From IMG/VR virus record IMGVR_UViG_3300050119_000052, positions 1 to 53,894 of that record: DNA of 53,894 nucleotides; one strand, 5' to 3'. This document shows, one piece after another, positions 5,301 to 46,782 of this stretch. Under the pieces are notes generated by a model. The model was not told where the DNA came from, did no database searches, and saw only the letters and a program-made list of their open reading frames with translations. The stretch is from a virus (lineage: Duplodnaviria > Caudoviricetes). Numbering within the stretch: position 1 is the stretch's first letter; every line of letters starts with the position of its first letter. The position numbers and the translations under genes were made by a program.

Positions 5301-5367
5301 CACTCAGCGGAGACGCCCGTCTGCATCCTGGGTGACGAAACAAATCTGGGGCATCTCCGCTGAGTGC
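5301..5367 (-). ncRNA. orphan dual-spacer guide RNA (tigRNA-like) #1; spacer A GATTTGTTT, spacer B GGATGCAGA
   Basis: Minus strand reads CACTCAGCGGAGATGCCC-CA-GATTTGTTT-CGTCACCCA-GGATGCAGA-C-GGGCGTCTCCGCTGAGTG. 18-bp stem with one G.U; loop repeat identical to the array units. Confidence 0.8.
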
Positions 5368-5374
5368 CGCCCAC

Positions 5375-5403
5375 AGTCTAACTGACTGAGCCGCGCAACC
5401 CAA
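5375..5403 (-). promoter_or_regulatory. promoter of orphan guide #1
   Basis: TAGACT -10 (5380-5375) 8 nt upstream of the stem; weak TTGGGT 17 bp further upstream. Confidence 0.65.
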
Positions 5404-5416
5404 AGGGGGACTTGGA

Positions 5417-6292
5417 ATGCCTGGTGTTTCGCCGCCAAACAACGAGAAATTCTTTGCGCTGCTCGGCGGCATGCAAAAGCAATTGCAAGCCATGAGCACC
5501 CAGCAGCAGCAAGCGATCACGAACGCGCTCGGGCAGGTGATCATCAACATCGGTTTGGTGCCCGGCTCGGACCCGGCCCGATATGGCATTCAATTTCTTG
5601 ATCCGAGTTCGGGTACCGAGATCGCGTTTTTAGGGGAAGGCACGTCTGCGGCGTTGTCGCTGTTGTTGGCCAACGATGGCAGTTTGACGATGAAGTCGAC
5701 TGCGGGCACGACGGTGCTGTATGCGGGTCAGGCGGCGATCCCCGACGGCAGTGGTCGCCTGCAAGAGGTCTTCGAGTTGTACCGCGACGACGGCTCGATA
5801 GCCCTGGCGCTAGGTGACTTCGGGACCGTCTACGACCACGCCCACCAACAGGCACTGCAGTGGTACGACCGCAGCGGCCGCATCGTGCTCGCCGATGACA
5901 CGACGAGCGCTCACGGCCTCGCGGCTCCACATCTGGCAACCAGCGGAACGCTTGTCAATACCAATACCTCAACGTGGCCAGCGACGACCAGCTCGGGCTT
6001 CACGACAATCGCCAACGGTGAAGTAGAACTACACAATCCGAAACTCAAATGGACGATCACGTTGATGGCGGATTCGGGGGTGACGGCCGAATTCCAGATG
6101 CTCATCAACGGCACCCAGATCGGCACCACGCAAACCGTCACAAGTGGCTTCTCGACATGGACGGCGACCAACCAGTCGCTTGGCGGCCTGCTACCCGGTG
6201 GTACCTACCTTGTGGAACTTCAAGCCAAGGTAACTGCTGGCAGCGGATCAGCTCGCGCGCAATGCCTGCAAATCACCGGCGATCAGTCCTAG
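5417..6292 (+). CDS. minor tail protein
   Basis: RBS AAAGGGGGA; N-terminal coiled segment then beta-rich sequence; tail module position. Confidence 0.65.
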   Translation: MPGVSPPNNEKFFALLGGMQKQLQAMSTQQQQAITNALGQVIINIGLVPGSDPARYGIQFLDPSSGTEIAFLGEGTSAALSLLLANDGSLTMKSTAGTTVLYAGQAAIPDGSGRLQEVFELYRDDGSIALALGDFGTVYDHAHQQALQWYDRSGRIVLADDTTSAHGLAAPHLATSGTLVNTNTSTWPATTSSGFTTIANGEVELHNPKLKWTITLMADSGVTAEFQMLINGTQIGTTQTVTSGFSTWTATNQSLGGLLPGGTYLVELQAKVTAGSGSARAQCLQITGDQS

Positions 6293-6293
6293 C

Positions 6294-6707
6294 CTAAGGG
6301 CATGGATTGCTGAGCGTCGTCCCGAGCGCGTAGTCGGTCGGCGTCTCACATGGCGTGGCAACGACGTAGGTCGGTGCGGGCGGGCGGAGGACACCGTCAT
6401 TCCCCGTTGTGCCAGGCCCCTGCACGACGAGCGTCTCGCGCGGCGTCGTCTTAGCTGGCGCGGGTATCGAAGCTGCGGTCACTGCTGCCTCCGTTGGTGC
6501 TACTGCTGGCGTGTTCACGGTAACCGCAGTCGGGCTCGAAACAGCAACGCTCGCCGAACTGGACGCGACCACCGGCTGATCAGCGGGCTGAACAACGACT
6601 GGCTGCGGCGCGACGGATGCACCACCTGACACAGCGAGTCCGAGACCAACCCCGGCGCCGATGAGCGCGAGTGCGGCTATGCCGACGATCTTGGTCCGAG
6701 CGTTCAT
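6294..6707 (-). CDS. membrane-anchored/secreted Ala-Pro-Thr-rich protein (moron)
   Basis: MNARTKIVGIAALALIGAGVGLGLAV signal/TM segment; start overlaps the stop of the upstream RHH gene. Confidence 0.6.
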   Translation of the reverse strand: MNARTKIVGIAALALIGAGVGLGLAVSGGASVAPQPVVVQPADQPVVASSSASVAVSSPTAVTVNTPAVAPTEAAVTAASIPAPAKTTPRETLVVQGPGTTGNDGVLRPPAPTYVVATPCETPTDYALGTTLSNPCP

Positions 6708-6847
6708 GGCTGGTCCTCGTCTATCCATCGTTGCAGCAGGTCGCGGATGACCTCGCTGACGTTCTTTCCCACCGTGTGAGCTTTGTCCCGGACTGCTTGG
6801 TACAGGTCGTCGGGGATTCGTACTTGCCGGAGCGGTGTCGTTGCCAT
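6704..6847 (-). CDS. ribbon-helix-helix DNA-binding protein
   Basis: MATTPLRQVRIPDDLYQAVRDKAHTVGKNVSEVIRDLL is a classic RHH pattern. Confidence 0.8.
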   Translation of the reverse strand: MATTPLRQVRIPDDLYQAVRDKAHTVGKNVSEVIRDLLQRWIDEDQP

Positions 6848-6854
6848 CACCGCA

Positions 6855-6883
6855 ACCATAACCCTTGTATATACACACGTCAA
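6855..6883 (-). promoter_or_regulatory. sigma70-type leaderless promoter with palindromic operator
   Basis: TTGACG-17-TATGGT, 7 nt before ATG 6847; palindrome TGTATATACA (6866-6875) in the spacer. Confidence 0.8.
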
Positions 6884-6896
6884 GAGGGGAGACCGC

Positions 6897-7217
6897 GTGT
6901 CCGACTGGATGCTCGCACTGTCCGGCCCACTCGCCCAGCGGAGCCCGCTACTCGCCACCCTCGACCGTGCCGGTGTCGACGTAGATCAGGACCATGGCCC
7001 ACGCGGTTTAGACACCGATCCCACGACGGGCTGGATCACCTGCCGGCACCCCGACGTGGATGACGTTGCACCGATCGCTATGGACGCCGGGTGGGCGCTG
7101 CGGATGCACTGGCCGACCCCACGCTGCCCCGCCTGCAACGGCACTACGAGCGTGGAGTTGCCGTGTCTGCACTGCGCGGGAACTGGGCGCACCGAGAAGC
7201 AACCCAAGGGAGCCTGA
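6897..7217 (+). CDS. hypothetical protein with C-terminal CxxCxG zinc-finger motifs
   Basis: RBS GAGGGGA then GTG; CPACNG...CLHCAGTG. Confidence 0.55.
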   Translation: MSDWMLALSGPLAQRSPLLATLDRAGVDVDQDHGPRGLDTDPTTGWITCRHPDVDDVAPIAMDAGWALRMHWPTPRCPACNGTTSVELPCLHCAGTGRTEKQPKGA

Positions 7218-7218
7218 C

Positions 7219-8283
7219 GTGGCATTAGAGGCTCCGGCGTTCGTCATTTCGGCGTCTTCCCATTCGGCTGCGCTTTTCCGCCAGGCGTCGCAGCTGTTCA
7301 TCGACGGAGCTGGTGTCGCCGAACCAAGTGGCCTCGCGGTCACCCAAAACGGTGTTGCGAACATGTCGGTCAACGTTGCCGCTGGCACGCTGTGGATGCC
7401 GGGCACGCTCGGTGCCACGACTGGGTTCGGTTCGAACGTCAACGCTCAAACCGCCTACGGGCTGCCGTCGAGCAAGACCGCGCAAGGCATGTACGCCGCC
7501 TATCAAGACGGCACAGTGAACCTCAGCATCTCCGCGGCGGACCCGACGAACCCGCGTATCGACATTGTGACGGCCGCCGTCCAAGACGCGCAATACGCGG
7601 GGTCGACGAATCTTCCGGTGTTGCAGATCATCACCGGAACCCCGAACGCGTCCCCGTCGGCGCCGTCCGCGCCCGCATCGTCGGTGGTCCTCGCGCAGGT
7701 CGCTGTCGCCGCTGGTGTGACGTCGATCGTGACCGCGAACATCACCGACGTGCGGCCCATGCTGTCGGTGCGGAGCAGTGTCACCCGCACGTCGGGTACC
7801 GCCCAGTATCCGACGCATCCCATCACTGGGCAGTACGTGGACGACGCGTATCTGAACGCGCTGCTGCGGTGGACCGGCTCCGCTTGGGTGCCTCCGTCGC
7901 CGCAGACGTATCTCCACACCGACACGATCGTCTCGGGGCCGCCGGCTGTGACGACCGGCGTCAACGGTGTCACCAGCGGCCTCGCGTTGCCGACTTTGCC
8001 GTACGCGACGCTGCTGAAGGTCTCGGCGCTCTGTTACATCCACCAAGCGACGTCGACGGATGTTTGTGAGGCGATCGTGCAGCAGAACAGCAGCACGGTG
8101 ATGGCCGCTGACATGACGGGCAGTTATGCGAGTCCGTCGATGCATAAGGTGTTCGCGGTGGCCGCGGGTGTGTCGCCCGGTACTTGGCAGCTGCTGCTGT
8201 CGAAGATCAGCGGTTCCGGGTCGTCGGCGACTGTTGTCGACAACGAGCGGACGTGGTTGCAGATCAGCGTCGAGGCGGCGTGA
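7219..8283 (+). CDS. minor tail protein
   Basis: ADPTNPRIDIV and LAQVAV...ITDVR motifs seen in actinophage minor tail proteins. Confidence 0.75.
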   Translation: MALEAPAFVISASSHSAALFRQASQLFIDGAGVAEPSGLAVTQNGVANMSVNVAAGTLWMPGTLGATTGFGSNVNAQTAYGLPSSKTAQGMYAAYQDGTVNLSISAADPTNPRIDIVTAAVQDAQYAGSTNLPVLQIITGTPNASPSAPSAPASSVVLAQVAVAAGVTSIVTANITDVRPMLSVRSSVTRTSGTAQYPTHPITGQYVDDAYLNALLRWTGSAWVPPSPQTYLHTDTIVSGPPAVTTGVNGVTSGLALPTLPYATLLKVSALCYIHQATSTDVCEAIVQQNSSTVMAADMTGSYASPSMHKVFAVAAGVSPGTWQLLLSKISGSGSSATVVDNERTWLQISVEAA

Positions 8284-8284
8284 C

Positions 8285-8791
8285 GTGAGTGGCCTGCTGA
8301 ATAGCACCGGCGTCGTCGTCTTGGAGTATGTGGGTGGCGCTGTTGGTGCCGCAGTCGTCTTGTACGTGTTCCGGGGGGTGCCGAAGTTGTTCAAGCGGTG
8401 GAATCAGTTCCTCGACGGTTGGGCTGGTACACCCGCTAGCCCCGGCGTTCCGGCCCGCCCGGGGGTGATGGAGCGGTTGCAGGATTTGACCGAGAGTCAG
8501 TTCGAGGATCGCGCGAAGATCGCGCAGGTCCTCGCGACGTCGACCGCGAATACTGCCTCAGCGTTGGCTGCCAATACCGCGGAGACAGCGAAGCAGCTCG
8601 CCAAGTGGACAGCGAAGACCGCCCAGGATGTAGCTGATCATGCGGCTAAGACCGACGCGGCGATCGTGGGCCTGACTGAGAACTTGGATGTGATCAAGCG
8701 GCAGGTTTCCCAGATTCATCATGAGACGCAGCCGAACGGCGGGGATTCGATGAAGGACCAGTTGAATCGCCTCGACCCGTTGAAGCCCTGA
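8285..8791 (+). CDS. membrane protein of the lysis cassette
   Basis: N-terminal TM, coiled coil, C-terminal PNGGDSMKDQLNR motif common next to actinophage lysins. Confidence 0.6.
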   Translation: MSGLLNSTGVVVLEYVGGAVGAAVVLYVFRGVPKLFKRWNQFLDGWAGTPASPGVPARPGVMERLQDLTESQFEDRAKIAQVLATSTANTASALAANTAETAKQLAKWTAKTAQDVADHAAKTDAAIVGLTENLDVIKRQVSQIHHETQPNGGDSMKDQLNRLDPLKP

Positions 8792-9693
8792 TGGTCGCGG
8801 TCACGGTCCCGATCGAGGGGACCGCTCATGATTTTGCCTATTGGCCCGGTGCGCCCGTGCTCGACTCGGCGGATCTGTTCGAGTCCTGTTATACGGACGG
8901 CCCTCATGCGACGCCGTTGGCCGACGTCGAAGCGATTCGGGCGACCGGCAAGGGCATTCTCTGGAACCACGAACGGGGCGCCCTGGATTTGTTGGGCGGC
9001 TCGACGGCCGGCACCCTCGCAGCCCAGGAAGCCATGGCGGCGGTCATCGCCGCGGGCACACCGACCGACGGCAGTTGCGCGATCGCGTACTCGGTCGACG
9101 GCAACGTCGGCCCAGCCGACTTCCAGAAAGCCCTCCCAGCGTTCCAGGCGATCAAGCTCGCGCACGGCGGCCGGTTCCTGACCGGCTACTACGGCGACCT
9201 CGCCCTCTACAAGTACTTGAAGGCCGCGGGCTTGGTCCAGACGAAGTGCTGGCTGTCCGCTAGCGCATCGTTCCCCGGCTACGACCCGAACGACCCCGAC
9301 GTCGGCCTGATCCAAACCGTCGGCACCGACATACCGGGCACTGACCGTGACCTCGTAACGGACCTCGCGAACCTTGGAGTTTGGATGACGCAAGTAGATC
9401 TCACCCCCGCATCGATCACGCTCGTCGCCGACGCGGTATGGCATCAGATACTGGTCCCCGCCAGCGAGCCGTACGCCGGCAACGTCTACGGCGACCTGAT
9501 GGTCCGCGCGAACCAGCAACTCGACCCGCTGCTCCCCGCGATCCAAGCCATCGTCACGACGATGACCGACCAGCAGGCCGCGACCCTCGTCGCGCAGATC
9601 CTCGCCGGCCTCGCCGCCCTCCCGCCCGCTGCGACGAAGCAGGACGTCATCGACGCCATCACCGCAACCATCAAGATCGGAGCCACCTCATGA
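8791..9693 (+). CDS. endolysin, DUF1906/Rv2525c-like (GH25-related) glycoside hydrolase
   Basis: GG..AG..AA, IAYSVD, TGYYG and W motifs; directly upstream of the holin. Confidence 0.7.
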   Translation: MVAVTVPIEGTAHDFAYWPGAPVLDSADLFESCYTDGPHATPLADVEAIRATGKGILWNHERGALDLLGGSTAGTLAAQEAMAAVIAAGTPTDGSCAIAYSVDGNVGPADFQKALPAFQAIKLAHGGRFLTGYYGDLALYKYLKAAGLVQTKCWLSASASFPGYDPNDPDVGLIQTVGTDIPGTDRDLVTDLANLGVWMTQVDLTPASITLVADAVWHQILVPASEPYAGNVYGDLMVRANQQLDPLLPAIQAIVTTMTDQQAATLVAQILAGLAALPPAATKQDVIDAITATIKIGATS

Positions 9694-9926
9694 CGATCAG
9701 TTGGGCCACTGTCAAGACCATCGGTGAGCGTGTCGTTGGCGCGTTCGCTGTCGCGTTCCTCGCCGCGTTGCCGGCCACTCTCGCGGGATGGCACGTGAGC
9801 GTATTGGAGAAGGCCGGTTACGCGGGCCTCGCCGCCGCGCTGGCGCTCGTTCAGTCGCTGCTGTGGACCCTGTTCTCCGGTCAGCCGCAGCTAACCCCAG
9901 CGGCCCGCGTAGGCGCAGCCAGGTAG
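9690..9926 (+). CDS. holin (r1t-like)
   Basis: 78 aa, two TM segments, ERVVGAFA motif, ATGA overlap with the lysin. Confidence 0.7.
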   Translation: MTISWATVKTIGERVVGAFAVAFLAALPATLAGWHVSVLEKAGYAGLAAALALVQSLLWTLFSGQPQLTPAARVGAAR

Positions 9927-9928
9927 CC

Positions 9929-10204
9929 ATGCCGTCACGGTTGCAGTCCCTCGGCGCGTACAAGCCGGACCAGTCGAACATCGGCATCTGGCTGTGGATC
10001 GGCCTCGGCGTGCTCGTCATCAGCTACGTGTCACTCGCCGACCTATGGCTACGCCGACACCAGCATGAGTACATGACCACGGAGTACCGCGAGGCGCTCC
10101 AGTCGTGGCTGTGGGGTCCGGTCGTTTGCTTCTTGACGTTCGGTTTCCTCGCCGCGCTGTTCTGGCACTTCTTCATCGCGAAGAACCCGGCAGGCAACGG
10201 ATGA
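9929..10204 (+). CDS. small two-TM membrane protein
   Basis: Two hydrophobic segments; coupled to neighbours. Confidence 0.55.
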   Translation: MPSRLQSLGAYKPDQSNIGIWLWIGLGVLVISYVSLADLWLRRHQHEYMTTEYREALQSWLWGPVVCFLTFGFLAALFWHFFIAKNPAGNG

Positions 10205-11719: not shown

Positions 11720-11720
11720 C

Positions 11721-20374: not shown

Positions 20375-21265
20375 TCAAGCGACGAGGTGCAGGTTACGAG
20401 GCACCGGCAGACTGCGAATCGCGGCAACCCGTTGATCGAGTCCGATCTCGGTGTACATGACAGTGCTCGCGATATTGGTGTGCCGCATCAGTCGTTGGAC
20501 CAGAGCGACATTACCGGTCGATTCGAGCAATTCCGTTCCAAAGGTATGACGAAGGGAATGGGGGGTCAGCGGTCGACCAAGGCCGGCGCGGCGCATCACC
20601 ATGCTGAGGATGTGACTGGCGCTGTTCGCGAGGATCGCTTCATCGGGATTCTGATAACTGGGGAACCAGAATCCTTCGGACGGCATCCACGCGGCGACCT
20701 CGGCGACGAGCGGATGGAGTGGCACCTCGTCGTAAGTGCCACCCTTTCCGACGACACCGATCATTTCGCCCTTGATGTCCTCGCCGCGGAACTTCGCGAT
20801 CTCCATGACCCGGAAACCCTGATAGGCGCCGAGCAGGATCATCGGCAGTGTGCGCGGGTGAACTCGGGCCGCTAGGAGCTCGTTCAGCTGACAGCGCGTG
20901 AGAGGTCGTGGTTTGCGGCGAATCGGTTTGCCTCGGTGGAGCTGGAGCATCGGATCGTCGGCGCGCAAGCCGGTCTGATTGAGCCAGTTGAACCAGCTCC
21001 GCAGGTTCGAGCGATAGTTCTGCTGGGTGCCGGGTGAAAGGGGCGCCAAGAAGCCTGTGACGTCCCGCCAGTCGGCCGTCAATGGGTCGATGCCCATGCG
21101 CCTCTCGAAGAGACCGACCGTCTCGATGCGTCCTCGGATGGTTTTGGGCGCGAGACCACCGGCCTGCATCCATGTTTCCCAAGCGTGAAGTTTGTCCCCG
21201 ATCACCGATGCATCATGGTCCGTCGACTCAGCGTAAACAAGCCTTAACTTCGAGTTGAACTTCAT
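20375..21265 (-). CDS. int: tyrosine integrase lacking an obvious N-terminal arm-binding domain
   Basis: GFRVMEI (R), GKGG (K), HSLRH, MRHTNIASTVMY (H, Y); C-terminus LHLVA; exact start uncertain. Confidence 0.92.
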   Translation of the reverse strand: MKFNSKLRLVYAESTDHDASVIGDKLHAWETWMQAGGLAPKTIRGRIETVGLFERRMGIDPLTADWRDVTGFLAPLSPGTQQNYRSNLRSWFNWLNQTGLRADDPMLQLHRGKPIRRKPRPLTRCQLNELLAARVHPRTLPMILLGAYQGFRVMEIAKFRGEDIKGEMIGVVGKGGTYDEVPLHPLVAEVAAWMPSEGFWFPSYQNPDEAILANSASHILSMVMRRAGLGRPLTPHSLRHTFGTELLESTGNVALVQRLMRHTNIASTVMYTEIGLDQRVAAIRSLPVPRNLHLVA

Positions 21266-21673
21266 CTAGGATGCCACCTCAATCGATGTCCGCTTTGTAC
21301 GCCATTCCCTCAGGTCGACCACAGAACCATTCGCTAGGTAATCGAAGGGTTGCTGGTTCGAGTCCAGCCGGGGGAGCACACCCGTCGAGTCGGGCGGCGG
21401 CGTGGTGCCATTGGGGCGTGAGGTCATGAAGCGCCAGATCGGAATCTGGAGCAGCCTGGCGAGACGGTCCAGGTCGTCTACGTCGAGCGCCTGGTCAGCC
21501 GTGCTGATGCGCCGACTCCAATAGGACTGCGAGTTGCCGAGCAGCTTCGGCAATCTGTTGATCGTGATCTTTGCTTTTGCGAGTTCCGAGCGCACTTCGG
21601 TGGCAACGCGCCCGCGGGCGCTCGACCGATCGGGCATCGGAACGACGTTGCTCATACCATCATTGTTCGTCAT
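21266..21673 (-). CDS. immunity repressor (HTH) containing attP in its 3' part
   Basis: HTH-like segment GNSQSYWSRRIS...LDVDDLDRLARLLQIP; divergent from cro; leaderless start at 21673. Confidence 0.85.
   Translation of the reverse strand: MTNNDGMSNVVPMPDRSSARGRVATEVRSELAKAKITINRLPKLLGNSQSYWSRRISTADQALDVDDLDRLARLLQIPIWRFMTSRPNGTTPPPDSTGVLPRLDSNQQPFDYLANGSVVDLREWRTKRTSIEVAS
21339..21376 (+). other. attP: attP core = 3' half of a tRNA (probably Asn-GTT)
   Basis: TAATCGAAGGGTT-GCTGG-TTCGAGT-CCAGC-CGGGGGA-G: anticodon 3' strand, T-arm, acceptor strand, G discriminator; no 5' half. Confidence 0.85.
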
Positions 21674-21679
21674 GCGGTC

Positions 21680-21708
21680 AATATAGCCCCTCACCGGATA
21701 CTTGCCAA
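21680..21708 (-). promoter_or_regulatory. repressor promoter (leaderless)
   Basis: TTGGCA-17-TATATT, 6 nt before ATG. Confidence 0.8.
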
Positions 21709-21715
21709 GGAAGGT

Positions 21716-21726
21716 GATTGACAATC
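21716..21726. promoter_or_regulatory. palindromic operator GATTGACAATC
   Basis: Lies between the divergent promoters; identical 11-mer at 38769-38779. Confidence 0.55.
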
Positions 21727-21758
21727 TCCTGTCCATGGGGATGTTAGTCGCTCAAGGG

Positions 21759-21787
21759 TTGACACAAGCCCATCATGCGGCTAACTT
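21759..21787 (+). promoter_or_regulatory. early lytic (cro) promoter, leaderless
   Basis: TTGACA-17-TAACTT, 6 nt before ATG 21794. Confidence 0.85.
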
Positions 21788-21793
21788 GACCAC

Positions 21794-22027
21794 ATGGCAA
21801 CCAACACCACCGCTGCGCGGGTAGCTGGGAAGGTCCGAGCCGCTCTCGCAGAAGCGCGGGTATCGCGCCAGTCCATCGCCGACGCGCTTGGAATCTCACT
21901 CTCGGCCATCACCCGGCGCCTCAACGCTGAGATCCCATTCGATGTGGCCGAGCTGGACAAGATCGCCGAGCGCCTCGACCTTCCGATGAATGCGCTGATC
22001 GTGACGCCAGATCAGGTGGCGTCGTGA
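21794..22027 (+). CDS. cro: Cro-like HTH protein
   Basis: SRQSIADALGISLSAITRRLNAEIPFDVAELDKIA, an XRE-type HTH. Confidence 0.85.
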   Translation: MATNTTAARVAGKVRAALAEARVSRQSIADALGISLSAITRRLNAEIPFDVAELDKIAERLDLPMNALIVTPDQVAS

Positions 22028-22141
22028 TCCGAGTCTGGCTGAGTTGGTGCTGGCTTTGGTCGGGTTCTGTGTGGCGTACGTGGTGACCCGGCGGGTCCTA
22101 GCCCGTCTACGAACGGATCAGCGATGACCGCAACTAAGACT

Positions 22142-22260
22142 CCCCACCACGCCAAGACGGCGACGTCACCCAGAGGTCCAGCGCGTGGTGGGGCCAAAAC
22201 TTCCAGCTTCCCCGGCAGCCAACCGGAACACGACACCCAACGGCGACTCGCTGCCGGGGA
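22142..22260 (+). ncRNA. TIGR-like stem-loop array, block 1 (units 1-2)
   Basis: Spacer pairs AGACGGCGA/GAGGTCCAG and ACCGGAACA/ACGGCGACT, each in stem-CCA-N9-CG(T/A)CACCCA-N9-CG-stem. Confidence 0.85.
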
Positions 22261-22282
22261 CCACTACTCAGCGGGGGAACAC

Positions 22283-22756
22283 ATGACCGGATTCAAAGAA
22301 ATCGTAGGCGACGTGCTGGAACACAGCGCCCGCAACGACCCCAACGAACTCGCAGAAGAGATCATGGGTCGGCTCACCCTGCCGCAGATCCGTGAAGGGC
22401 TAGCGCTCGCCCTCCCGGAGTACGTCCGACACGCGTTCCATCGCATCACCTACACCCCCGACCCTGACCCGTCTCGGCGAGTCAGGCAGGCGGCGGGGGC
22501 GTGGGATCGGCACAAGCAGCTCCTCGCTGTCCGCAAGCTGGGGTTGGAGGACTGGAAGCCGTTCGGGGAGTTCACCGCTGCGGATTGCACTGCGGCGGCG
22601 GAGTTGCGGCGGTTGAAGGCGTCGGAGTCGACGGCGCGAGCGGTCAAGTTCGACGCGACGGCTGAGGCTGTTGTGGCTGCGGGTGTCGCGTGTGTCGCGG
22701 ACCTGCCTGCTGATGTGCTTCTCGGTTTGTGGGGTAGCCATGACCTCGGCGAATAA
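22283..22756 (+). CDS. hypothetical 157-aa protein embedded in the array (candidate Tas partner)
   Basis: RBS GGGGGAACAC-ATG nearly identical to that of the tas gene; flanked by array blocks on both sides. Confidence 0.75.
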   Translation: MTGFKEIVGDVLEHSARNDPNELAEEIMGRLTLPQIREGLALALPEYVRHAFHRITYTPDPDPSRRVRQAAGAWDRHKQLLAVRKLGLEDWKPFGEFTAADCTAAAELRRLKASESTARAVKFDATAEAVVAAGVACVADLPADVLLGLWGSHDLGE

Positions 22757-22760
22757 GACC

Positions 22761-23050
22761 TCCCCGGCAGCCAGACCGCCTACGTCACCCACAAGGGCAC
22801 CGCTGCCGGGGACCCAAACCACCGCCACGCCACGCTGGTCGCGTCACCCACATCTGGTTCGCGTGGCGGTCCTATTCGACCCCGGCAGCCAAAGCCGCGC
22901 CGTCACCCATGTCGTGGGCGCTGCCGGGGTCCATATTCCCCCACCACGCCAGAGGTCGACCGTCACCCAACGCCCACACGCGTGGTGGGTTCACACGTCC
23001 CCGGCAGCCAGCCCGCAGCCGTCACCCAGACGAGGCACGCTGCCGGGGAC
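22761..23050 (+). ncRNA. TIGR-like stem-loop array, block 2 (units 3-7)
   Basis: About 59-nt period. Spacers GACCGCCTA/CAAGGGCAC, CGCTGGTCG/CATCTGGTT, AAGCCGCGC/TGTCGTGGG, GAGGTCGAC/ACGCCCACA, GCCCGCAGC/GACGAGGCA; invariant CGTCACCCA loop repeat. Confidence 0.9.
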
Positions 23051-23070
23051 CTCACTCATCGGGGGACCAC

Positions 23071-23805
23071 ATGACTGACCTCTACGACCCACTCCTCGGC
23101 AACCTCGCCGCCACAGTCGACGACCTCGAGATGGTTCGGAAAGCCGCCGAGAACCGTCTACGGCAGTTGACTAGGACCGGCGTCGACAAAGACGGCACCT
23201 CACGCGGCTTCGGACTACCCGAAGACCACCTATCCGTCCAAGCGGCCACAGTCATCGTCGACGGACTCAAGCGAGTCGAACACCAAGCGATCCTGCTGTT
23301 ACAGCGCCAACTCCGCACCCACCCACTACACCCGTGGATCAAGGCCCAAAACGGGCTGGGTGAGAAAACCGTCGCCCGACTGCTCGCCGCGATCCAGGAC
23401 CCGTACTGGAACGACCGACACGACCGCCCCCGCACCGTTGGTGAGCTGTTCAAGTTCTGCGGTGTCGCCGGCCCCGGTCAGCGTAAGCGGAAGGGTGAAC
23501 GGGTCACGTGGTCGCCTGAGGCGCGGATGCGATTGCACGTGATCATCGAGCCGATCGTGAAGAATCGGCGGTCGCCCTATCGGGCGGTTTACGACCAGGC
23601 GCGGGTCAAGTACGCGGAGAAGACGCACACGGAGGTGTGTGTGCGGTGCGGCCCGGCGGGTAAGCCTGCGCTGGTTGGGTCGCCGTGGCCGCCGGCTCAT
23701 CAGCATGCGGCCGCGATGCGCCTGGTGAAGCGTGCAGTTCTGCGCGGGCTGTGGGAAGAATCCCGCCGGTTGCATGGTGCCGACGAACTGAAGGTCGCAG
23801 CATGA
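23071..23805 (+). CDS. Nop-domain/IS110 C-terminal-like RNA-binding protein without a nuclease domain (TasA-like)
   Basis: 244 aa; coiled coil (RKAAENRLRQL), then WIKAQNGLGEKTVARLLAAI...TVGELFKFCGVA...RKGERVTWSPEARMRL...YRAVYD...HAAAMRLVKRAVLRGLW. No RuvC/DEDD N-terminus. Flanked by dual-spacer arrays. Confidence 0.82.
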   Translation: MTDLYDPLLGNLAATVDDLEMVRKAAENRLRQLTRTGVDKDGTSRGFGLPEDHLSVQAATVIVDGLKRVEHQAILLLQRQLRTHPLHPWIKAQNGLGEKTVARLLAAIQDPYWNDRHDRPRTVGELFKFCGVAGPGQRKRKGERVTWSPEARMRLHVIIEPIVKNRRSPYRAVYDQARVKYAEKTHTEVCVRCGPAGKPALVGSPWPPAHQHAAAMRLVKRAVLRGLWEESRRLHGADELKVAA

Positions 23806-23816
23806 CCACTCAAACT

Positions 23817-23984
23817 CCCGCCACGCCAGCCATCTGCCGACACCCAGCTCTCTCGCGCGTGGCGGGGCTCAACTACCCCGGCAGCCATGGGCCTGGCGTC
23901 ACCCAAGCGATGACCGCTGCCGGGGTCCTAAACGAATCGTCGCGCCAAGTCCCAGCCGTCACCCATCAGAGGGCCGCCCGTCGG
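23817..23984 (+). ncRNA. TIGR-like stem-loop array, block 3 (units 8-10; last stem degenerate)
   Basis: Spacers GCCATCTGC/GCTCTCTCG, TGGGCCTGG/AGCGATGAC, AGTCCCAGC/TCAGAGGGC. Confidence 0.85.
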
Positions 23985-24007
23985 AGGCTTCCCGTCGGTG
24001 GTGGGTC

Positions 24008-24631
24008 ATGACCAGCACCGAAGAGGCCAGCGGCGATCTGCGACCGTGCCCGCGCTGCAATGGACGGGGGACCGTTCACAGCAAAGAGGTTGTCCACGGC
24101 ACGCTCTACGCGGCCACTCGTCTCCGCTGCCGATGCGATCTCTGCTCTGCTGCTCGCCGGGATTACGACTCAGCTCGATTGGGTCACCGGATCCGGTCTC
24201 GCGCAGAGCAGAAGCAGGCGCGACTCGAGTCGGCCGGAGAGTTCATCACCCTTCACCAGTCAGGCCTGACGATCGCGGAGATAGCGGCCAAGGTGAACCG
24301 GTCGATCAACTTCGTTGCTGGCGCGTTGCATGAAGCGGGATATCAGCCGCGGCGGGGTATTACCGCGACTTTCCTCGAGCACGGAACCCGCGCGTACAAG
24401 GTCCGCACAGGCTGCCGCTGCGATCTGTGCCGCGCTGCCGTCACCCGCGAGAAGAAGGAAGCGCGCCAGCGGCGCCACGAAGCCATGCTCGCTGGCCAAG
24501 TGAACCCGCCGCACGGATCGACCAGCACCTACAGCAACTACACCTGCCGCTGCGATCTGTGCCGCGCTGCGTGGTCGGTCCGTATGCGCGAACAACGCCA
24601 GCGCCGGAAGCCACCGAGAGGCCGGTCATGA
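24008..24631 (+). CDS. zinc-finger (HG..Y..CRC..C x3) + HTH DNA-binding protein
   Basis: Three HG-x-CRCDLC repeats flanking GLTIAEIAAKVNRS. Confidence 0.7.
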   Translation: MTSTEEASGDLRPCPRCNGRGTVHSKEVVHGTLYAATRLRCRCDLCSAARRDYDSARLGHRIRSRAEQKQARLESAGEFITLHQSGLTIAEIAAKVNRSINFVAGALHEAGYQPRRGITATFLEHGTRAYKVRTGCRCDLCRAAVTREKKEARQRRHEAMLAGQVNPPHGSTSTYSNYTCRCDLCRAAWSVRMREQRQRRKPPRGRS

Positions 24632-40958: not shown

Positions 40959-41363
40959 ATGGGTCGACAGTGCCGTAACCCGAAGTGCAACCGTCCGTTG
41001 ACTGGTCGTAAGACGATGTGGTGTGACAGTGGGTGTCGGAACGCGGCGAGTCGCGCGGCGAGTCGTGGTGCGACGGTGATCAGCCTCCCGAAGGTGGAGG
41101 ACCAGGGCCCTCTGAGCACGTATTCGGCGTTCAAGGCGGCTCTCGACGCTGCGGGGCGCCTGGACACGCCTTTAGGGCAGCTCGCGCTGTCTCATGCGGC
41201 GCTGTTGAACGCCTCGGTTGCTGTGATGGGCCGTGCGGCGTTGGCCAAGGAGCTTCGTGAGACGTTTGTTGAGGCGATGAAGGATGCCGACCACAACACT
41301 TCCGCTCTCGACGAGATCAATGAGTCCGCTGCTGCTGCGCTCGAGCTCATTCGTGGAGCCTGA
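40959..41363 (+). CDS. terS: terminase small subunit (N-terminal Zn finger)
   Basis: Position; AALAKELR and LDEI motifs. Confidence 0.7.
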   Translation: MGRQCRNPKCNRPLTGRKTMWCDSGCRNAASRAASRGATVISLPKVEDQGPLSTYSAFKAALDAAGRLDTPLGQLALSHAALLNASVAVMGRAALAKELRETFVEAMKDADHNTSALDEINESAAAALELIRGA

Positions 41364-42909
41364 TCTTGTCGCGCCGAGGTATCTGACTGTCCCGGAGTAT
41401 GAGGGCACGTTGGGTCCGCATGTGGCGGCGGTGTCGACGTTGGCGGGGTTCGCGCCTGATCCGGAGCAGCGGATTCTGTTGGATGGTGCGTTCGGGTTGG
41501 ATAGGTCGGGGAAGCCGGCTGCGTTCGCGGTGGTGGTGATCGCGCCGCGGCAGAACTTGAAGACGGGGTTCCTTAAGCAGTATTCGCTGGGTCAATTGTT
41601 CGTCGTGTCGCAGCATTTGTCTCGGCGGGACGCTCAGGACTGGCTGATGGTGTGGTCCTCACATGAGTTCACGACGGCCGAGGCTGCGCTGCGTGACTTG
41701 GAGTCGCTGATCGAGGGGTCCCCGGATCTGGCGCGGATGGTGAAGCGGACGAGCCGCGGGTTCCTCGCGAAACATGGCGCTGTTCCGGTCATCGAGTTGA
41801 AGAACGGCGCCCGGTGTGTGTTCAAGACCCGCACCAAGGGCGGCGGGCGGGGGTTGTCGGGTAACAAGACGATCCTCGACGAGGCGTTCGCGGTGCAGGC
41901 GGGGCAGGCGGGGGCGTTGCTGCCGATCATGTTGGCTCGACCGGGCGCGCAGGTGTTGTGGGCGTCGTCGGCGTGTCGACCCGAGTCGGCTGTGTTGTGG
42001 GATCAGGTGGTCCGTGGTCGCGCCGGGGCCCGGCGGATGTTGTATGCGGAGTGGTGCGCGCCGCCCCCAGCGGAGGCGTGCCGGTTGGGTGAGCGGTGCA
42101 CGCACGGCCGGGAGGTTCGCGGCTGCGGCTGCGACGACCTGGACCTGATCCGGGGTGTTCATTCGGCGATCACCCGCGGCCGTATCGACATTCAGACCGT
42201 TGTCGATCTGCGGTCGCTGCCGCCGGAGGAGTATTGCCGGGAGATCATGGGCTGGCACAACGACGTCGTCGGTTCGACGATGATCATGTCGCTGGCGAAG
42301 TGGTCGCTGCTGGCCGATGAGAAGTCTGGCCTCACATCGGTGTCCGCGTTCGGTGTCGCAGTGTCACATGACCGCAAGTGGGCGAGTATCGGCGCGGCGG
42401 GGCCGGCTAAGTCGGCGATCGGCCGCACCCACCTGGAACTGGTCGACCGGAGACCCGGCGTCGACTGGGTGGTGGAGCGGTGCAAGGAGTTGGCGAAGAC
42501 GCACAGGCGGGTGCCGTTCGTCGTCGACGACCACGGCCCGGCGGCGTCGCTGATCAAAGCGTTGAAGCAGGCGCGGGTGCCGCTGATGACAACCAGTACA
42601 GGTGAGTACGCGGACGCGACGGAACAGTTCCTCGACGGTGTGGTGGGTGAGTTGTTCACCCACGGCCCGGACGAGGTGATTCAGGACGCGGTCGACGCGG
42701 TGCAGCCGCGGCCGATGGGTGACCGGTTCGTTCTCGGCCGCAAAGCGTCGGGGGACATCACAGCGCTGGAAGGTCCCATGCTCGCGGCGTGGGGCGCATC
42801 GAACTACAAGCGGCCCACCTATGTGGTCGACCTCAACCAGTTTGGAGCCGTAGATGACGTGGTTGAGGCGGGTGACGAGGCAGCGGGTCCTGATCCACTC
42901 GGCCGCTGA
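41320..42909 (+). CDS. terL: terminase large subunit
   Basis: PRQNLKT Walker-A-like, GRGLSG, ILDEA Walker B, DITALE; start could be GTG 41353. Confidence 0.92.
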   Translation: MSPLLLRSSSFVEPDLVAPRYLTVPEYEGTLGPHVAAVSTLAGFAPDPEQRILLDGAFGLDRSGKPAAFAVVVIAPRQNLKTGFLKQYSLGQLFVVSQHLSRRDAQDWLMVWSSHEFTTAEAALRDLESLIEGSPDLARMVKRTSRGFLAKHGAVPVIELKNGARCVFKTRTKGGGRGLSGNKTILDEAFAVQAGQAGALLPIMLARPGAQVLWASSACRPESAVLWDQVVRGRAGARRMLYAEWCAPPPAEACRLGERCTHGREVRGCGCDDLDLIRGVHSAITRGRIDIQTVVDLRSLPPEEYCREIMGWHNDVVGSTMIMSLAKWSLLADEKSGLTSVSAFGVAVSHDRKWASIGAAGPAKSAIGRTHLELVDRRPGVDWVVERCKELAKTHRRVPFVVDDHGPAASLIKALKQARVPLMTTSTGEYADATEQFLDGVVGELFTHGPDEVIQDAVDAVQPRPMGDRFVLGRKASGDITALEGPMLAAWGASNYKRPTYVVDLNQFGAVDDVVEAGDEAAGPDPLGR

Positions 42910-43063
42910 CCAGACGTTCGAGGGCTTGTTGTGGGAGCAGGACAAGGAAGGCGTGACCCTTCGGGACGCGGCCCTGATCAGTGAGAAAGGCGCACAGACG
43001 CGGCTGGCGGGGGAGGTGTGGATTCCCCGCGGCAACGTGCTGTTCGCGCAGCACGACGGATAA
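42854..43063 (+). CDS. small Sm-like hypothetical protein
   Basis: TFEGLL...GEVWIPRGNVLFAQ. Confidence 0.6.
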   Translation: MTWLRRVTRQRVLIHSAADQTFEGLLWEQDKEGVTLRDAALISEKGAQTRLAGEVWIPRGNVLFAQHDG

Positions 43064-43072
43064 GAGGCGGCC

Positions 43073-44314
43073 ATGCAGGTTCTGACCAGGGATCGGCGCT
43101 TCGAAGAGGTCCGTTCGGGCACCTGGAATCCGGCTCAGCAGTGGGGTTCGACTGTGCCGCCCACCAACGGGCAGGCGGGTGGCGTCGCGGCCTCGGGGAC
43201 GACGGTGTCGGAGAAGCACGCGATGCAGCTCGCGGCGGCGTGGGGGTCGGTGTCGATCATCTGCGACGCGTTGGCGACGCTACAGATCCGGCAGTACAAG
43301 CTGGTGTCGAGTAGCGACGTCCCGGTGCAGATGGACCCGTCGCAGGTCATCGCGGAGCCGTGGCCCGAGATCAATCAGCTGGATTTCATCACCCAGGGCA
43401 CCTATTCGCTTTTGCAGCGGGGGAATCTGTTCGGCAACATCACCGCACGGGACCCGAACACCCTTTACCCGACGCAGGTGCAGCTCGTCCACCCTGATCA
43501 TGCGCGGGTTCGCCGCGCCGGCCAGGGGCAGATCGAGGTGTCCTACTTCAACAAGGTCGCGAACCCCGACAATGTGACCCGGGCGATGGCGCTGTCCGTC
43601 CCTGAGGGACTGGTCGGGTTGAACCCGATCGAGTACATGCGTAACTCGTTCGGGCTGGGTTTGGCGCAGGACGGCATGAGTGGTTCGTTCTTCGCGAACT
43701 CGGCTAGGCCCGATGGTGTCCTCCAAGTCGAGGGTGATCTGGACCCGGACGAAACGAAGGCGATGCTCGCCGCGTGGAACTCCTCCCATCAGGGCATCGA
43801 GGCCGCGTACGGCGTCGGTGTGTTGACGAGCGGCGCCAAGTGGCAACCGATCACGATGAACCTCGCGGACGCCCAGTTCTTGCAGCAGATGCAGTATTCG
43901 GCGTCGGTGATTTCCGGGATGATTTACCGGGTTCCGCCGCACATGCTCGGCATCGTCGACAAGTCCACGTCGTGGGGTGCCGGCATCGAGCAGCAGGAAC
44001 AAGGGTTCATCACCAACACCATCGGGATCTGGCTGGCCCGCTGGGAAGACTTGATGACGTCGTGGCTGCCACCAAGGCAGTTCGTGATGTTCGACCTGAG
44101 CAAGCGGCTCCGTGGTGACACGTTGCAGCGCTGGTCGATGTATCAGATGGCGCGGGTTATCGGTGCGATGAACAACCTTCAGATCATCAAGGCTGAGGGT
44201 TTGGAGATTCCGACGGACCCGGCGGTGTTGGCGACGTTGGCGGATTATGCGGCGCCGTTGAATTCGGCGCCGATGAAGCCGACGAATTCCGCAGTCGACG
44301 GAGACAAAGCGTAA
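43073..44314 (+). CDS. HK97-family portal protein
   Basis: GLNPI, FFANSARP, DAQFL, YRVPPHMLG, IEQQ. Confidence 0.93.
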   Translation: MQVLTRDRRFEEVRSGTWNPAQQWGSTVPPTNGQAGGVAASGTTVSEKHAMQLAAAWGSVSIICDALATLQIRQYKLVSSSDVPVQMDPSQVIAEPWPEINQLDFITQGTYSLLQRGNLFGNITARDPNTLYPTQVQLVHPDHARVRRAGQGQIEVSYFNKVANPDNVTRAMALSVPEGLVGLNPIEYMRNSFGLGLAQDGMSGSFFANSARPDGVLQVEGDLDPDETKAMLAAWNSSHQGIEAAYGVGVLTSGAKWQPITMNLADAQFLQQMQYSASVISGMIYRVPPHMLGIVDKSTSWGAGIEQQEQGFITNTIGIWLARWEDLMTSWLPPRQFVMFDLSKRLRGDTLQRWSMYQMARVIGAMNNLQIIKAEGLEIPTDPAVLATLADYAAPLNSAPMKPTNSAVDGDKA

Positions 44315-44321
44315 TAGCAAA

Positions 44322-44389
44322 GCACCCAGCGGAGAAGCCCGAAAGGGAAATGGGTGACGTTTTGGAGATGGGGCTTCCCCGCTGAGTGC
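44322..44389 (-). ncRNA. orphan dual-spacer guide RNA #2; spacer A TCTCCAAAA, spacer B TTTCCCTTT
   Basis: 18-bp stem that is complete only on the minus strand (two G.U); CCA-N9-CGTCACCCA-N9-CG; TAGACT at 44402-44397 and CTGTCA 18 bp upstream. Confidence 0.82.
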
Positions 44390-44419
44390 AGCCACAAGTC
44401 TACCTGAAAGGAGGTCGCC

Positions 44420-45394
44420 GTGACAGACGACGCAAGCGACGCAGCCGAGGAGAAGGCTCTGCCGAAGTCGGTCGAGTGGCGCAAGACGCGCGCCATGGAA
44501 CTGCGAGGCGCCGAGCGTCGCACCCATCTGGAGCATGTCGAGTTCCGCGACAACCCAGACGGGTCCCTGCATCTGTCCGGTTACGCATCGGTTACGAATA
44601 CTCCATACGATATGGGATGGTATTCCGAGTCGATCTCCCGCGGCGCGTTCGCGAAAACCCTCGCCGAAAACCCCGACGTGCAACTCCTCGTGAACCACGC
44701 CGGGCTGCCGTTGGCGCGCACCAAGTCGGGCACTTTGCAACTGTCTGAGGACAACACGGGGCTGCGGGTAGACGCTGATCTCGACCCGGAAGACCCCGAC
44801 GTGCAGTCGCTGTCGCGGAAGATGAAGCGCGGCGATATCGACCAGATGAGCTTCGCGTTCCGTGCGACCAGGCAGTCCTGGGACGAGGACTACACCGACC
44901 GGCAGATCACCGAATGCGATATTCACCGCGGCGATGTCAGCGTTGTGAATCAGGGTGCGAACCCGAGCACGTCCGTGTCGGTGCGCACTGAAGACGCACT
45001 GGTGGCGTTGCGGCACATCGGGCACCTCGGATTCCTCGAGGCGATGCTCGACATTCGGCGCTTCTCCGGCACTCCGCTGGAGCAGCGGGCCGGGATGACG
45101 CTGTCCGCGGCCACCACCGAGGTACTGACCCAGGTGCTGGCCCTCATTGCGACGGCGGACGAAGCAGTCGACGAGGCTCAGCCGCTCCTGGCCGATCTGA
45201 TGGGCGTCCCCAACCCCGACGAGCCCGAAGAGGACGCGAGCGATGCGACCGTCGATGACACCAGCGACGAAGGTGACGACGGCGACCAGGGCGGCGACGA
45301 GGGCGAACAGGACTCGGCCCGCAGCGTGTCGCTGGCGTTGGAAGCCCGCCGCCGCCTAGAAGCGCTCCGCTACCCGAAGAAGGACGCAGCATGA
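44420..45394 (+). CDS. HK97-type prohead protease
   Basis: GYASV, LLVNH, MSFAF, DVSVV...AN; acidic C-terminal extension. Confidence 0.9.
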   Translation: MTDDASDAAEEKALPKSVEWRKTRAMELRGAERRTHLEHVEFRDNPDGSLHLSGYASVTNTPYDMGWYSESISRGAFAKTLAENPDVQLLVNHAGLPLARTKSGTLQLSEDNTGLRVDADLDPEDPDVQSLSRKMKRGDIDQMSFAFRATRQSWDEDYTDRQITECDIHRGDVSVVNQGANPSTSVSVRTEDALVALRHIGHLGFLEAMLDIRRFSGTPLEQRAGMTLSAATTEVLTQVLALIATADEAVDEAQPLLADLMGVPNPDEPEEDASDATVDDTSDEGDDGDQGGDEGEQDSARSVSLALEARRRLEALRYPKKDAA

Positions 45395-46539
45395 CCAGCG
45401 TCGAAGTCGTGTCCGAGCCGCTCACCTACGAGCGGCACGGCCCCCACTCGTACTTCCAGGACATGTATCGGGCGCAGGAAGATCCTCGCGCCTTTGACCG
45501 CTTGTCCCGGCACAGCGCGGAGATGCGGGTCGTTGGTGAGAAGCGGGAGGCACGTGCCCGTCAGGCGCTCGACGCTGGTGACCTGGAGTACCGGGTCAGC
45601 CCCGACACAACTCAGGGCACGGGCGGGTACCTCACCGTGCCACTCTGGCTCGATCAGTTGTTCGCGACGGCGCCGCGCCCGGGCCGGATCTTGGCAGCTC
45701 TGATCGAGGCTGCGTTCGACCTGCCTGACGGTGTGTCGTCGATCAACGTCCCGATTCTGACCGCTGGCACGGCCGTGCAGCCTGTGCTCGACGACTCCGC
45801 GGCGCCGAGCGCTGATGTCACCGACGCGGCGGGTTCCTCGACCGTCGTCACCCTCACTGGCCAGTCTGATTGGCCGATCCAGGCACTGGAGCAGTCCCCG
45901 GCCGGTGCCGCCCTGGATTGGGTGATCTTCACCGACATGGCTGCCGCCTACGACGCCCAACTCGAAACGCAACTCCTCACCGGACTGGGTGCCGCTGCGA
46001 AGCAACTAGTTGGTGTCCTCAACGTCGCGGGCACGGTCGGCGTCACCTACACCAACGCGTCGCCGACCGGCGCGTTGCTGTACCCCTATCTCGGCCAAGC
46101 GACGGCTCGGGTCGGTAACAACCGCAATCTGCCGCCGGAGGCGTTTCTGATGCGGACGGCTCGGTGGGCGTGGCTCGCTACGTCTGAGGACACGCAGGGC
46201 CTCCCCTTTTTCTTGCCCACGTTTTTTCTCGGCGACGACGAGGACACCCCGGATGCGCTCGGTGGTGTCGTCGGGATCCCCGTGTTCTGTGATGACGCGT
46301 TGCCCGCGAATCTCGGTGCGGGCGGCAATCAGGATGTCATTGTCGCGTTGCGACCGTCGGACATGGTCATTTTCGAAGGCACCCCGCAGACCACCGTGAT
46401 GCGTGAGGTGCTGTCCGGGTCGCTCGGTGTCCGCTTCCAGATGCACAACAGAGTTGCTGCGATCACGAATCGCTACCCGTCCGGTATCTCGCCCATTACC
46501 GGGACGGGCCTCGTCGTGCAGTCAGGCTTCAGCTCCTGA
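45391..46539 (+). CDS. major-capsid-like protein, paralogue 1 (short)
   Basis: HK97-fold motifs GGYLTVPLWL and REVLSGSLGVRFQ shared with the next gene. Confidence 0.8.
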   Translation: MTSVEVVSEPLTYERHGPHSYFQDMYRAQEDPRAFDRLSRHSAEMRVVGEKREARARQALDAGDLEYRVSPDTTQGTGGYLTVPLWLDQLFATAPRPGRILAALIEAAFDLPDGVSSINVPILTAGTAVQPVLDDSAAPSADVTDAAGSSTVVTLTGQSDWPIQALEQSPAGAALDWVIFTDMAAAYDAQLETQLLTGLGAAAKQLVGVLNVAGTVGVTYTNASPTGALLYPYLGQATARVGNNRNLPPEAFLMRTARWAWLATSEDTQGLPFFLPTFFLGDDEDTPDALGGVVGIPVFCDDALPANLGAGGNQDVIVALRPSDMVIFEGTPQTTVMREVLSGSLGVRFQMHNRVAAITNRYPSGISPITGTGLVVQSGFSS

Positions 46540-46548
46540 CGCAATGGA

Positions 46549-46616
46549 GCACCCAGCGGAGAAGCCCGCACACCGACTGGGTGCCGCTCATGACCTGGGG
46601 TCTCTCCGCTGAGTGC
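46549..46616 (-). ncRNA. orphan dual-spacer guide RNA #3; spacer A GGTCATGAG, spacer B GTCGGTGTG
   Basis: Same 18-bp stem family; loop repeat CGGCACCCA; TAGACT at 46630-46625. Confidence 0.78.
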
Positions 46617-46782
46617 CGTCCCCGAGTCTAACCACTAGTCGTTTCACCCCACGCCGGGCCTGTGCCCGGTGCGCGCCGCTGCACCCACGGGTCGCAGCAC
46701 CCGCACCGGACGTGGCGCACCACCTGGGAAATCCAGCAAACCCCCAGAGCGCACGAATGCGCCCGACGCTAGGAGAACAGCA

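Follow-up and report, generated by a model that had tools for sequence, protein, structure and literature searches.

Can the guide RNA of a TIGR (tandem interspaced guide RNA) system be encoded by a free-standing gene, far from the array and the tas gene that it would serve? This question is raised by three single stem-loop units, here termed orphans O1, O2 and O3, on the minus strand of IMG/VR virus record IMGVR_UViG_3300050119_000052, whose whole length, linear and 53,894 bases long, is referred to as the window (CheckV completeness estimate, 77%; GC content, ~64%). The same window carries a TIGR array of ten units, U1 to U10, and a tasA gene. The best reading of the locus, which we consider rather probable, is that O1-O3 are solo TIGR guide RNA (tigRNA) genes that are self-transcribed and act in trans on the resident TasA. 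Their origin by chance is excluded, and their TIGR identity and minus-strand polarity are well supported; that TAGACT is a -10 box, that TasA is loaded with the orphan RNAs and that transcription is repressed we infer only. As a single metagenomic phage analyzed from its sequence, the window offers a well-defined lead and not a demonstrated mechanism.

Anatomy and location of the orphan units

O1-O3 are three paralogous modules of ~95 nt (Table 1). On the minus strand, each consists of the hexamer TAGACT, a variable linker of 7-8 nt, GCACTCAGCGGRGA..CCCC, an A, spacer A of 9 nt, a CG(T/G)CACCCA loop, spacer B of 9 nt, CGGGC.TCTCCGCTGRGTG(C/T) and a U-rich tail ending in ATTRCG, and the distance from TAGACT to CACTCAGCGGRGA..CCCCA is 8, 8 and 9 nt in O1, O2 and O3, respectively. 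A three-way alignment delimits the module, for similarity begins abruptly at G[T/G]TAGACT and stops at ATTRCG. The minus-strand string that an earlier note on this DNA had described is present at all three sites. The loop of O1 and O2 is the exact CGTCACCCA of the array and that of O3 is CGGCACCCA; position 3 is likewise variable in array units U2 and U8. The orphan stem is composed of 19 pairs, i.e., 17 Watson-Crick and two G.U pairs in O1 and O2, and 16 Watson-Crick pairs, two G.U pairs and one A.C in O3, as compared with 10-12 pairs in the array. The earlier note was right that this stem is distinct and longer than that of the array, but had put it at 18 pairs. Long stems are known in bona fide arrays, those of phages Morrissey and Rich having 21-22 and 15-18 pairs, respectively.

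Each orphan is found directly after a stop codon and ahead of the next ribosome-binding site of plus-strand virion genes, so that the antisense placement within the virion operon that had been proposed holds at all three junctions: between a minor tail gene and the next gene (O1), between portal and protease genes (O2) and between capsid-like genes A and B (O3). The orphans are single, 16.8-24.4 kb from the array and on the strand opposite to it, and they do not lie in tandem beside tas. Two further sequencing runs, from other studies, yield contigs that contain O2 and O3 in identical fragments of the same phage and hence carry no variant information; O2 and O3 are therefore not an assembly artifact of a single sample. 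A peat metagenome run contains the whole searched stretch 43900-47000 and may be the source of the record.

The resident TIGR array and tasA

The ten array units are encoded on the plus strand downstream of a cro-like gene, at 22142-23986, in three sub-arrays, and each reads stem-CCA-[9]-CG(T/A)CACCCA-[9]-CG-stem. The longest tasA reading frame extends 5' into sub-array 2, and the true start of tasA is probably downstream of U7, because in several hits the homology to other phage TasA proteins sets in near residue 58. The tasA frame matches the solved chains 21kl_A (TasH; E 2.3e-8) and 9mty_A (E 1.7e-8) as well as phrog_4285 (E 6e-88), and its homologs, with 42-53% identity, are found in 91 phage records, mostly of Mycobacterium phages, in which they are labelled transposase or hypothetical. 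A Pfam search of the tasA product returned nothing, and neither a nuclease domain nor a DEDD or RuvC recombinase domain was detected in it. The product is thus predicted to be a Nop-domain Tas protein, which we call TasA-like because no nuclease domain was detected; the earlier note had assigned it in the same way. Its system matches the published stem-loop TIGR class, in which a unit has two short spacers of 8-12 nt, each placed between a box C-like and a box D-like motif. A near search with the tas region returned no match in the phage collection, and close TasA relatives sought in IMG/VR via peptide patterns yielded none that could be confirmed.

In the four Fromanvirus phages Kanely, Bethlehem, Gompeii16 and Marsha (L381-L397), the TasA homolog is preceded by two to four stem-loop TIGR units, whose stems are common across phages and whose spacers differ. 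This homolog is labelled transposase, helix-turn-helix (HTH) or hypothetical.

Shared grammar of array and orphan units

CGTCACCCA has 10 exact copies in the window, every one of them in a TIGR-like unit (eight in the array and two in orphans). TAGACT occurs three times on the two strands of the window, each time at an orphan (shuffle mean, 6.4). A finder that combines the box grammar with a stem recovers 11 units in the window and none in 20 shuffles, with O3 recovered only if two stem mismatches are allowed. Across the 13 array and orphan units, CCA, CG.CACCCA, CG and the 9+9 spacing are invariant, which bears out the earlier proposal that the orphans follow the grammar of the array. The flanking helix of the 13 units is 95.1% paired, with 10 of 11 pairs changed on both sides, and the covariation observed was reached by none of 500 shuffles. 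A covariance model built from all 13 units gave 13 hits of 44.9-57.4 bits, followed by a next hit at 17.8 bits, a result that is circular for the orphans. As the orphan stem is unlike that of the array, the TIGR status of O1-O3 rests on grammar and structure and not on stem sequence.

Among the three orphans, pairwise identity is 153/168 (91%) over TAGACT, arms and loop and 11/54 (20%) over the spacers (Fisher p 6.5e-23), the latter being at or below the random level. A constant scaffold thus carries exchangeable guides, a pattern that is unlike the uniform decay of duplicated DNA. This bears on another history of the orphans, which we consider unlikely: they would be dispersed TIGR copies, selfish or borne by recombination, with their arms serving as terminal inverted repeats, and would now be functionless or decaying passengers in permissive gaps between genes. 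Decay should hit all parts of such copies alike, yet the scaffold is kept while the spacers are not, every box and loop position in common with the array is intact, and the stem changes are G.U or compensated, with one mismatch in 57 pairs. The spacers of O1 and O2 are AT-rich (33-39% GC vs. 64% for the genome), which might suit promoter or foreign DNA.

Strand polarity

The 57 stem pairs of the orphans comprise 50 Watson-Crick pairs, six with G.U on the minus strand, where the plus strand has A.C, and one of the reverse kind; the claim that G.U pairs set the polarity of the RNA is therefore upheld. The box order is directional and also suits the minus strand. The predicted minus- and plus-strand folding energies are -43.8 and -34.6 kcal/mol for O1, -38.2 and -38.0 kcal/mol for O2 and -42.1 and -37.0 kcal/mol for O3, so that the minus-strand fold is stabler for O1 and O3 and equal to that of the plus strand for O2. 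The minus-strand z-scores are -7.4, -6.8 and -4.2.

The plus-strand RNA also folds well (-34.6 to -38.0 kcal/mol; z, -3.2 to -6.0), each orphan is placed precisely between the stop codon of one gene and the ribosome-binding site of the next, and any minus-strand RNA would match the late mRNA over its full length. These points would accord with a different function, in which the orphans act in the plus-strand late mRNA or in cis, as hairpins that tune processing, stability or polarity or by antisense pairing, and the TIGR grammar is a leftover. The six stem positions that are A.C mismatches on the plus strand, the lack of a U-tract after the plus-strand hairpin and the absence of any hairpin from relatives at two comparable junctions (see below) all argue against such a function, which moreover leaves the retention of CCA, CG.CACCCA, CG and the 9+9 spacing unexplained. 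We judge it improbable.

Candidate signals for transcription and processing

TAGACT is invariant and is followed, after 7-8 nt, by the stem base, while the adjoining linker varies. The housekeeping -10 pattern of mycobacteria is TANNNT with a start 6-8 nt downstream; a start at such a distance would fall at the stem base in all three orphans, and 5' processing would consequently be unneeded. We regard an own promoter at TAGACT, as read from the sequence, as plausible but unproven.

The orphan RNAs might instead be real tigRNAs cut from longer antisense transcripts, with TAGACT as a processing or other signal and not a -10 box. In the systems studied, stem-loop tigRNAs are matured by processing at stem bases (Xu et al., 2026, 10.64898/2026.09.09.750476), and no -35 is found at the orphans. 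TAAGACT or TAAGACC also abuts the first unit of two sub-arrays in the window (22135-22141 and 22754-22760), as TAAGAACTC abuts the first array unit in the four Fromanvirus mycobacteriophages Kanely, Bethlehem, Gompeii16 and Marsha. These strings resemble TAGACT, are at zero distance from the stem and hence too close to it for a -10 box, and may be a processing or leader signal. In the orphans, however, conservation begins abruptly at G[T/G]TAGACT, the spacing of 7-8 nt to the stem base suits a transcription start, and no candidate antisense promoter or gene was found upstream of them within the virion genes. Production by processing is for these reasons given a low probability.

By eye, TTGACA, 17 nt, TAACTT and, 6 nt further on, the ATG of the cro-like gene are found at 21757-21796. 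This string looks like the early promoter of a leaderless mRNA and, unlike the orphans, has a -35.

Insertion into the virion operon and rarity of the scaffold

Eight related viral contigs were found via the portal protein (61-66% identity). At the portal-protease junction, the protease start is a few bases after the portal stop in five of the eight (L011-L014 and L018), a short gap with a ribosome-binding site is present in L016, and a different gene is inserted in L017. In L015, a TIGR-tasA cassette is inserted there (8931-10100), on the minus strand of that locus and antisense to the virion genes, i.e., at the site and in the orientation of O2. The cassette contains four units with alternating stems and the loop CGAYGCCCA, and its tasA homolog is 34% identical to that of the window (E 1e-34). 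At the capsid-like junction, no O3-type hairpin is found in the five relatives compared, which possess only the shared leader. Because the junctions of the relatives are tight or hairpin-free, O2 and O3 are, judging from these sequences, insertions relative to them, and the virion operon tolerates antisense TIGR material. The comparison covers O2 and O3 only, the genes flanking O1 having no relatives in IMG/VR. The tasA gene was found in one of the eight portal relatives (L015), all of which are fragments, 11-61% complete.

The insertion of O2 and O3, the common ends of the three paralogs (GTTAGACT to ATTRCG), the confinement of their scaffold to this one record among those searched and the other insertions taken by the portal-protease gap (the L015 cassette and the L017 gene) are all traits that selfish or recombination-borne copies could display. 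The inverted arms of such copies are present too, but neither flanking direct repeats nor a duplicated flank is seen in the three-way alignment.

The gap upstream of the second capsid-like gene contains a conserved GC-rich leader, CGCGCCGGACC ... GGCACCACCCGGG, in the window (46640-46800) and in relatives (L011, 6160-6330; L013, 6990-7100; L015, 13560-13700; L017, 15030-15140). The leader at 46640-46800, for which the window has no Rfam match, could be a plus-strand RNA element. The leader gap of L013 contains, by eye, a tRNA-like sequence besides.

In IMG/VR, a relaxed pattern of the orphan scaffold matched eight stretches, none of which belongs to the orphan family. The specific pattern had no match in metagenome contigs, where, among at least 120 matches of the relaxed pattern listed, three had stems of at least 9 pairs and none had this scaffold. 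The scaffold was likewise absent from species-representative genome contigs, and the matches of a loop-only pattern in IMG/VR, of which at least 120 were listed, were essentially at the chance level, with one stemmed hit among those listed. Eight other TasA phages were scanned for dispersed units, as whole genomes (Morrissey, Kanely, Bethlehem, Gompeii16, Marsha and Peregrin) or over the first 50,000 bases (Rich, of 69,819, and prophiFSAT01-1, of 67,729). None of the eight had dispersed units; in all of them every unit is located beside or inside tas and on the tas strand. The combined covariance model found no units elsewhere in Morrissey or in the first 50 kb of Rich and prophiFSAT01-1.

Proposed mechanism and target searches

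We propose that each module of ~95 nt is transcribed from the minus strand, with a start that coincides with the stem base or is no more than 1-2 nt from it. The RNA would fold into a 19-bp stem presenting box C (CCA), spacer A, the loop, spacer B and box D (CG), with the loop supplying box D' (CG) and then box C' (CCA), and transcription would probably terminate at the stem and the U-rich tail. A dimer of the resident TasA would bind the orphan RNA in trans, the spacers of 9+9 nt would direct it to an 18-bp DNA site and, by analogy with other TasA proteins, its binding would block transcription without DNA cleavage.

Several results weigh against the orphans being active, self-transcribed guide genes. 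No conserved -35 and no TGN extension are found, nothing is conserved upstream of G[T/G]TAGACT in the three-way alignment, and a two-hexamer scan calls no promoter at any orphan. The self-promotion put forward in the earlier note thus relies on an invariant TAGACT, of TANNNT type and 7-8 nt ahead of the stem base; that the phage uses the hexamer TAGACT nowhere else also counts against an own promoter. A scan for canonical terminators made no call at any orphan, whichever the strand, the loop being ~30 nt and the tail only moderately U-rich. The stem-base CUU, a processing site according to the preprint (Xu et al., 2026, 10.64898/2026.09.09.750476), is found only after the 3' arm of O2 (GUGCUUUG) and not after that of O1 (GUGUUCCC) or O3 (GUGCUCCA). 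With a covariance model built from the 10 array units, O2 and O1 reach 21.5 bits (E 0.025) and 16.5 bits (E 0.27), respectively, both on the minus strand, while O3 is not recovered at E <= 0.5; these scores are weak because the orphan stem differs from the array stems, which are biased in sequence. The scaffold is known from one genome only, and the sequencing runs that match the searched stretch include no RNA run. Guide and TasA may, moreover, not be co-expressed in all states, as tasA is in the apparent early rightward operon.

The target searches, which identified none, point in the same direction. Within the window, 12 units searched in both spacer geometries, with gaps of 0-6 and up to three mismatches, had no self-target at 0-1 mismatch. 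Beyond the fetched loci, the orphan spacers used were those of O2. In geometry rcA+B, O2 had no target in 3 and then in 301 genomes of the family of G001, and in IMG/VR its two geometries gave five and one exact hits, in contigs of 40-44% GC, that we judge to be chance. Genuine TIGR targets have been described as hard to identify by Faure et al. (2025, PMC12045711).

The fetched loci, 3.3 Mb in all, yielded a single near hit, that of array unit U4, at 17/18 positions in geometry B+rcA (L056:3074 and L095:12099). The two IMG/VR contigs are 95.7% identical and hence represent one lineage, and the hit was rejected as a U4 target since it is within chance for the number of queries.

The activity in the lysogen that the earlier note envisaged is unsupported. 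The array and tasA are located directly downstream of the cro-like gene and opposite to the repressor-like gene; with tasA in this early lytic position, TasA may be absent from the lysogen. A different scheme, speculative and in our view improbable, is that tigRNA genes which are dispersed and transcribed independently constitute a second, snoRNA-like (small nucleolar RNA-like) mode of TIGR, in which antisense placement in the late operon serves as a timer. As long as the late operon is silent, constitutive promoters with a -10 only would produce the guides, which would load early-expressed TasA and silence AT-rich promoters of the host or of competitors, until late transcription switches the guides off by promoter occlusion and by pairing with the late mRNA.

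Genomic context

The gene order of the window is that of a temperate siphovirus, circularly permuted (Table 1). At the nucleotide level its only relatives are Mycobacterium phages, with 70-76% identity over short stretches. The probable attP core was rejected as a basis for host assignment because the same tRNA-Asn(GTT) 3' end is common to many actinobacterial genera; the core is unchanged in Mycobacterium, Mycolicibacterium, Amycolatopsis, Nocardioides, Rubrobacter and others. Scans of the window found no Rfam family at the gathering score and no tRNA gene. The products of the two capsid-like paralogs have ~31-35% identity, as traced via their relatives, and the gene pair is kept in every relative whose contig extends that far. 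An exact 27-nt direct repeat (24412-24438 and 24544-24570; copies 132 nt apart) is located within frame 24008-24631, which has matches to HNH and zinc-finger-like families.

Table 1. Coordinates of the orphan units, the resident TIGR locus and other features of the window
Feature	Positions	Strand	Parts and remarks
O1	5289-5380	-	TAGACT 5375-5380; 5' arm 5367-5348; box C A 5347; spacer A GATTTGTTT 5346-5338; loop CGTCACCCA 5337-5329; spacer B GGATGCAGA 5328-5320; 3' arm 5319-5300; U-rich tail 5299-5289, ending ATTGCG; between minor-tail gene (stop 5294-5296) and gene beginning at 5417
O2	44310-44402	-	TAGACT 44397-44402; 5' arm 44389-44370; A 44369; spacer A TCTCCAAAA 44368-44360; loop 44359-44351; spacer B TTTCCCTTT 44350-44342; 3' arm 44341-44322; tail 44321-44310; between portal and head maturation protease genes
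O3	46540-46630	-	TAGACT 46625-46630; 5' arm 46616-46597; A 46596; spacer A GGTCATGAG 46595-46587; loop CGGCACCCA 46586-46578; spacer B GTCGGTGTG 46577-46569; 3' arm 46568-46549; tail 46548-46540; between the two capsid-like genes
TIGR sub-array 1	22142-22260	+	U1, U2; 52-nt cores 22142-22193 and 22209-22260
TIGR sub-array 2	22761-23049	+	U3-U7; two alternating stem types, CCCCGGCAGCC and CCACCACGCC
tasA	22909-23805	+	longest frame, between sub-arrays 2 and 3; single copy in window
TIGR sub-array 3	23816-23986	+	U8-U10, 3' of tasA; U10 stem weaker
Tape measure	410-3187		followed by minor tail genes
Integrase	20375-21265	-	
Repressor-like gene	21266-21736	-	
attP core (probable)	about 21339-21377		identical to 3' end of tRNA-Asn(GTT)
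cro-like HTH gene	21794-22027	+	directly upstream of TIGR array; early genes follow
Terminase	41284-42909		
Portal	43073-44314		
Head maturation protease	44420-45394		
Two capsid-like genes	45391-46539 and 46669-48441		

Comparison with known systems and significance

Stem-loop TIGR arrays with TasA are represented by PlTasA from the Peromyscus gut and BlTasA of Bifidobacterium longum in two reports (Faure et al., 2025, PMC12045711; Xu et al., 2026, 10.64898/2026.09.09.750476). According to the latter, TasA proteins are RNA-guided repressors, and the positions from which stem-loop tigRNAs are expressed are flexible, namely upstream of, downstream of or inside tas. The window resembles these systems in that a nuclease-free Nop-domain protein is encoded in the same genome. 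Their units, however, are in tandem and beside or inside tas, whereas the orphans are single, 17-24 kb off, on the opposite strand and in the late operon, each with its own hexamer and tail.

Box C/D small RNA (sRNA) and snoRNA genes share with the orphans the order C - guide - D' - C' - guide - D and a terminal stem. In the orphans, by contrast, the boxes are reduced to CCA and CG, no kink-turn and no L7Ae or fibrillarin partners are evident, and the presumed target is DNA and not RNA. The bridge RNA of the IS110 family is likewise a single structured guide RNA that serves a protein with a Nop-like RNA-binding domain, and the Tas gene of the window is labelled transposase in several phage records. 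The bridge RNA, however, has target and donor loops and a gene that adjoins that of its recombinase, while no recombinase domain of the DEDD or RuvC type was detected in the Tas protein of the window. Solitary CRISPR repeat-spacer units and mini-arrays in viruses usually rely on host Cas proteins. They too are isolated guides in a mobile element, away from a full array, but belong to another guide family with another protein, and in the window the effector is encoded by the same phage.

The large TIGR survey covered at most 10 kb on each side of tas (median, 5.4 kb). Faure et al. (2025, PMC12045711) set tigRNAs clustered in regular arrays against sparsely distributed snoRNAs. The TIGR texts searched, from which supplements that may list some such units are excluded, make no mention of orphan, solo, stand-alone, antisense or opposite-strand units. 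Within those texts, no description is given of single units that are dispersed and have an upstream signal of their own, as the earlier note had supposed.

If the orphans are indeed solo tigRNA genes, array-centered annotation under-counts guides. A tigRNA could then be a free-standing gene, which would bear on the question, left open in the preprint, of tigRNA processing vs. independent promoters (Xu et al., 2026, 10.64898/2026.09.09.750476). Were the timer scheme true as well, the window would present a natural case of a tigRNA that arises by promoter-driven transcription and not by array processing. The Fromanvirus TasA phages are well studied, and published RNA-seq of such phages could bear on tigRNA expression. 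Finally, TIGR units would be copyable to new sites with new spacers, which would touch on the unsolved origin of TIGR spacers.

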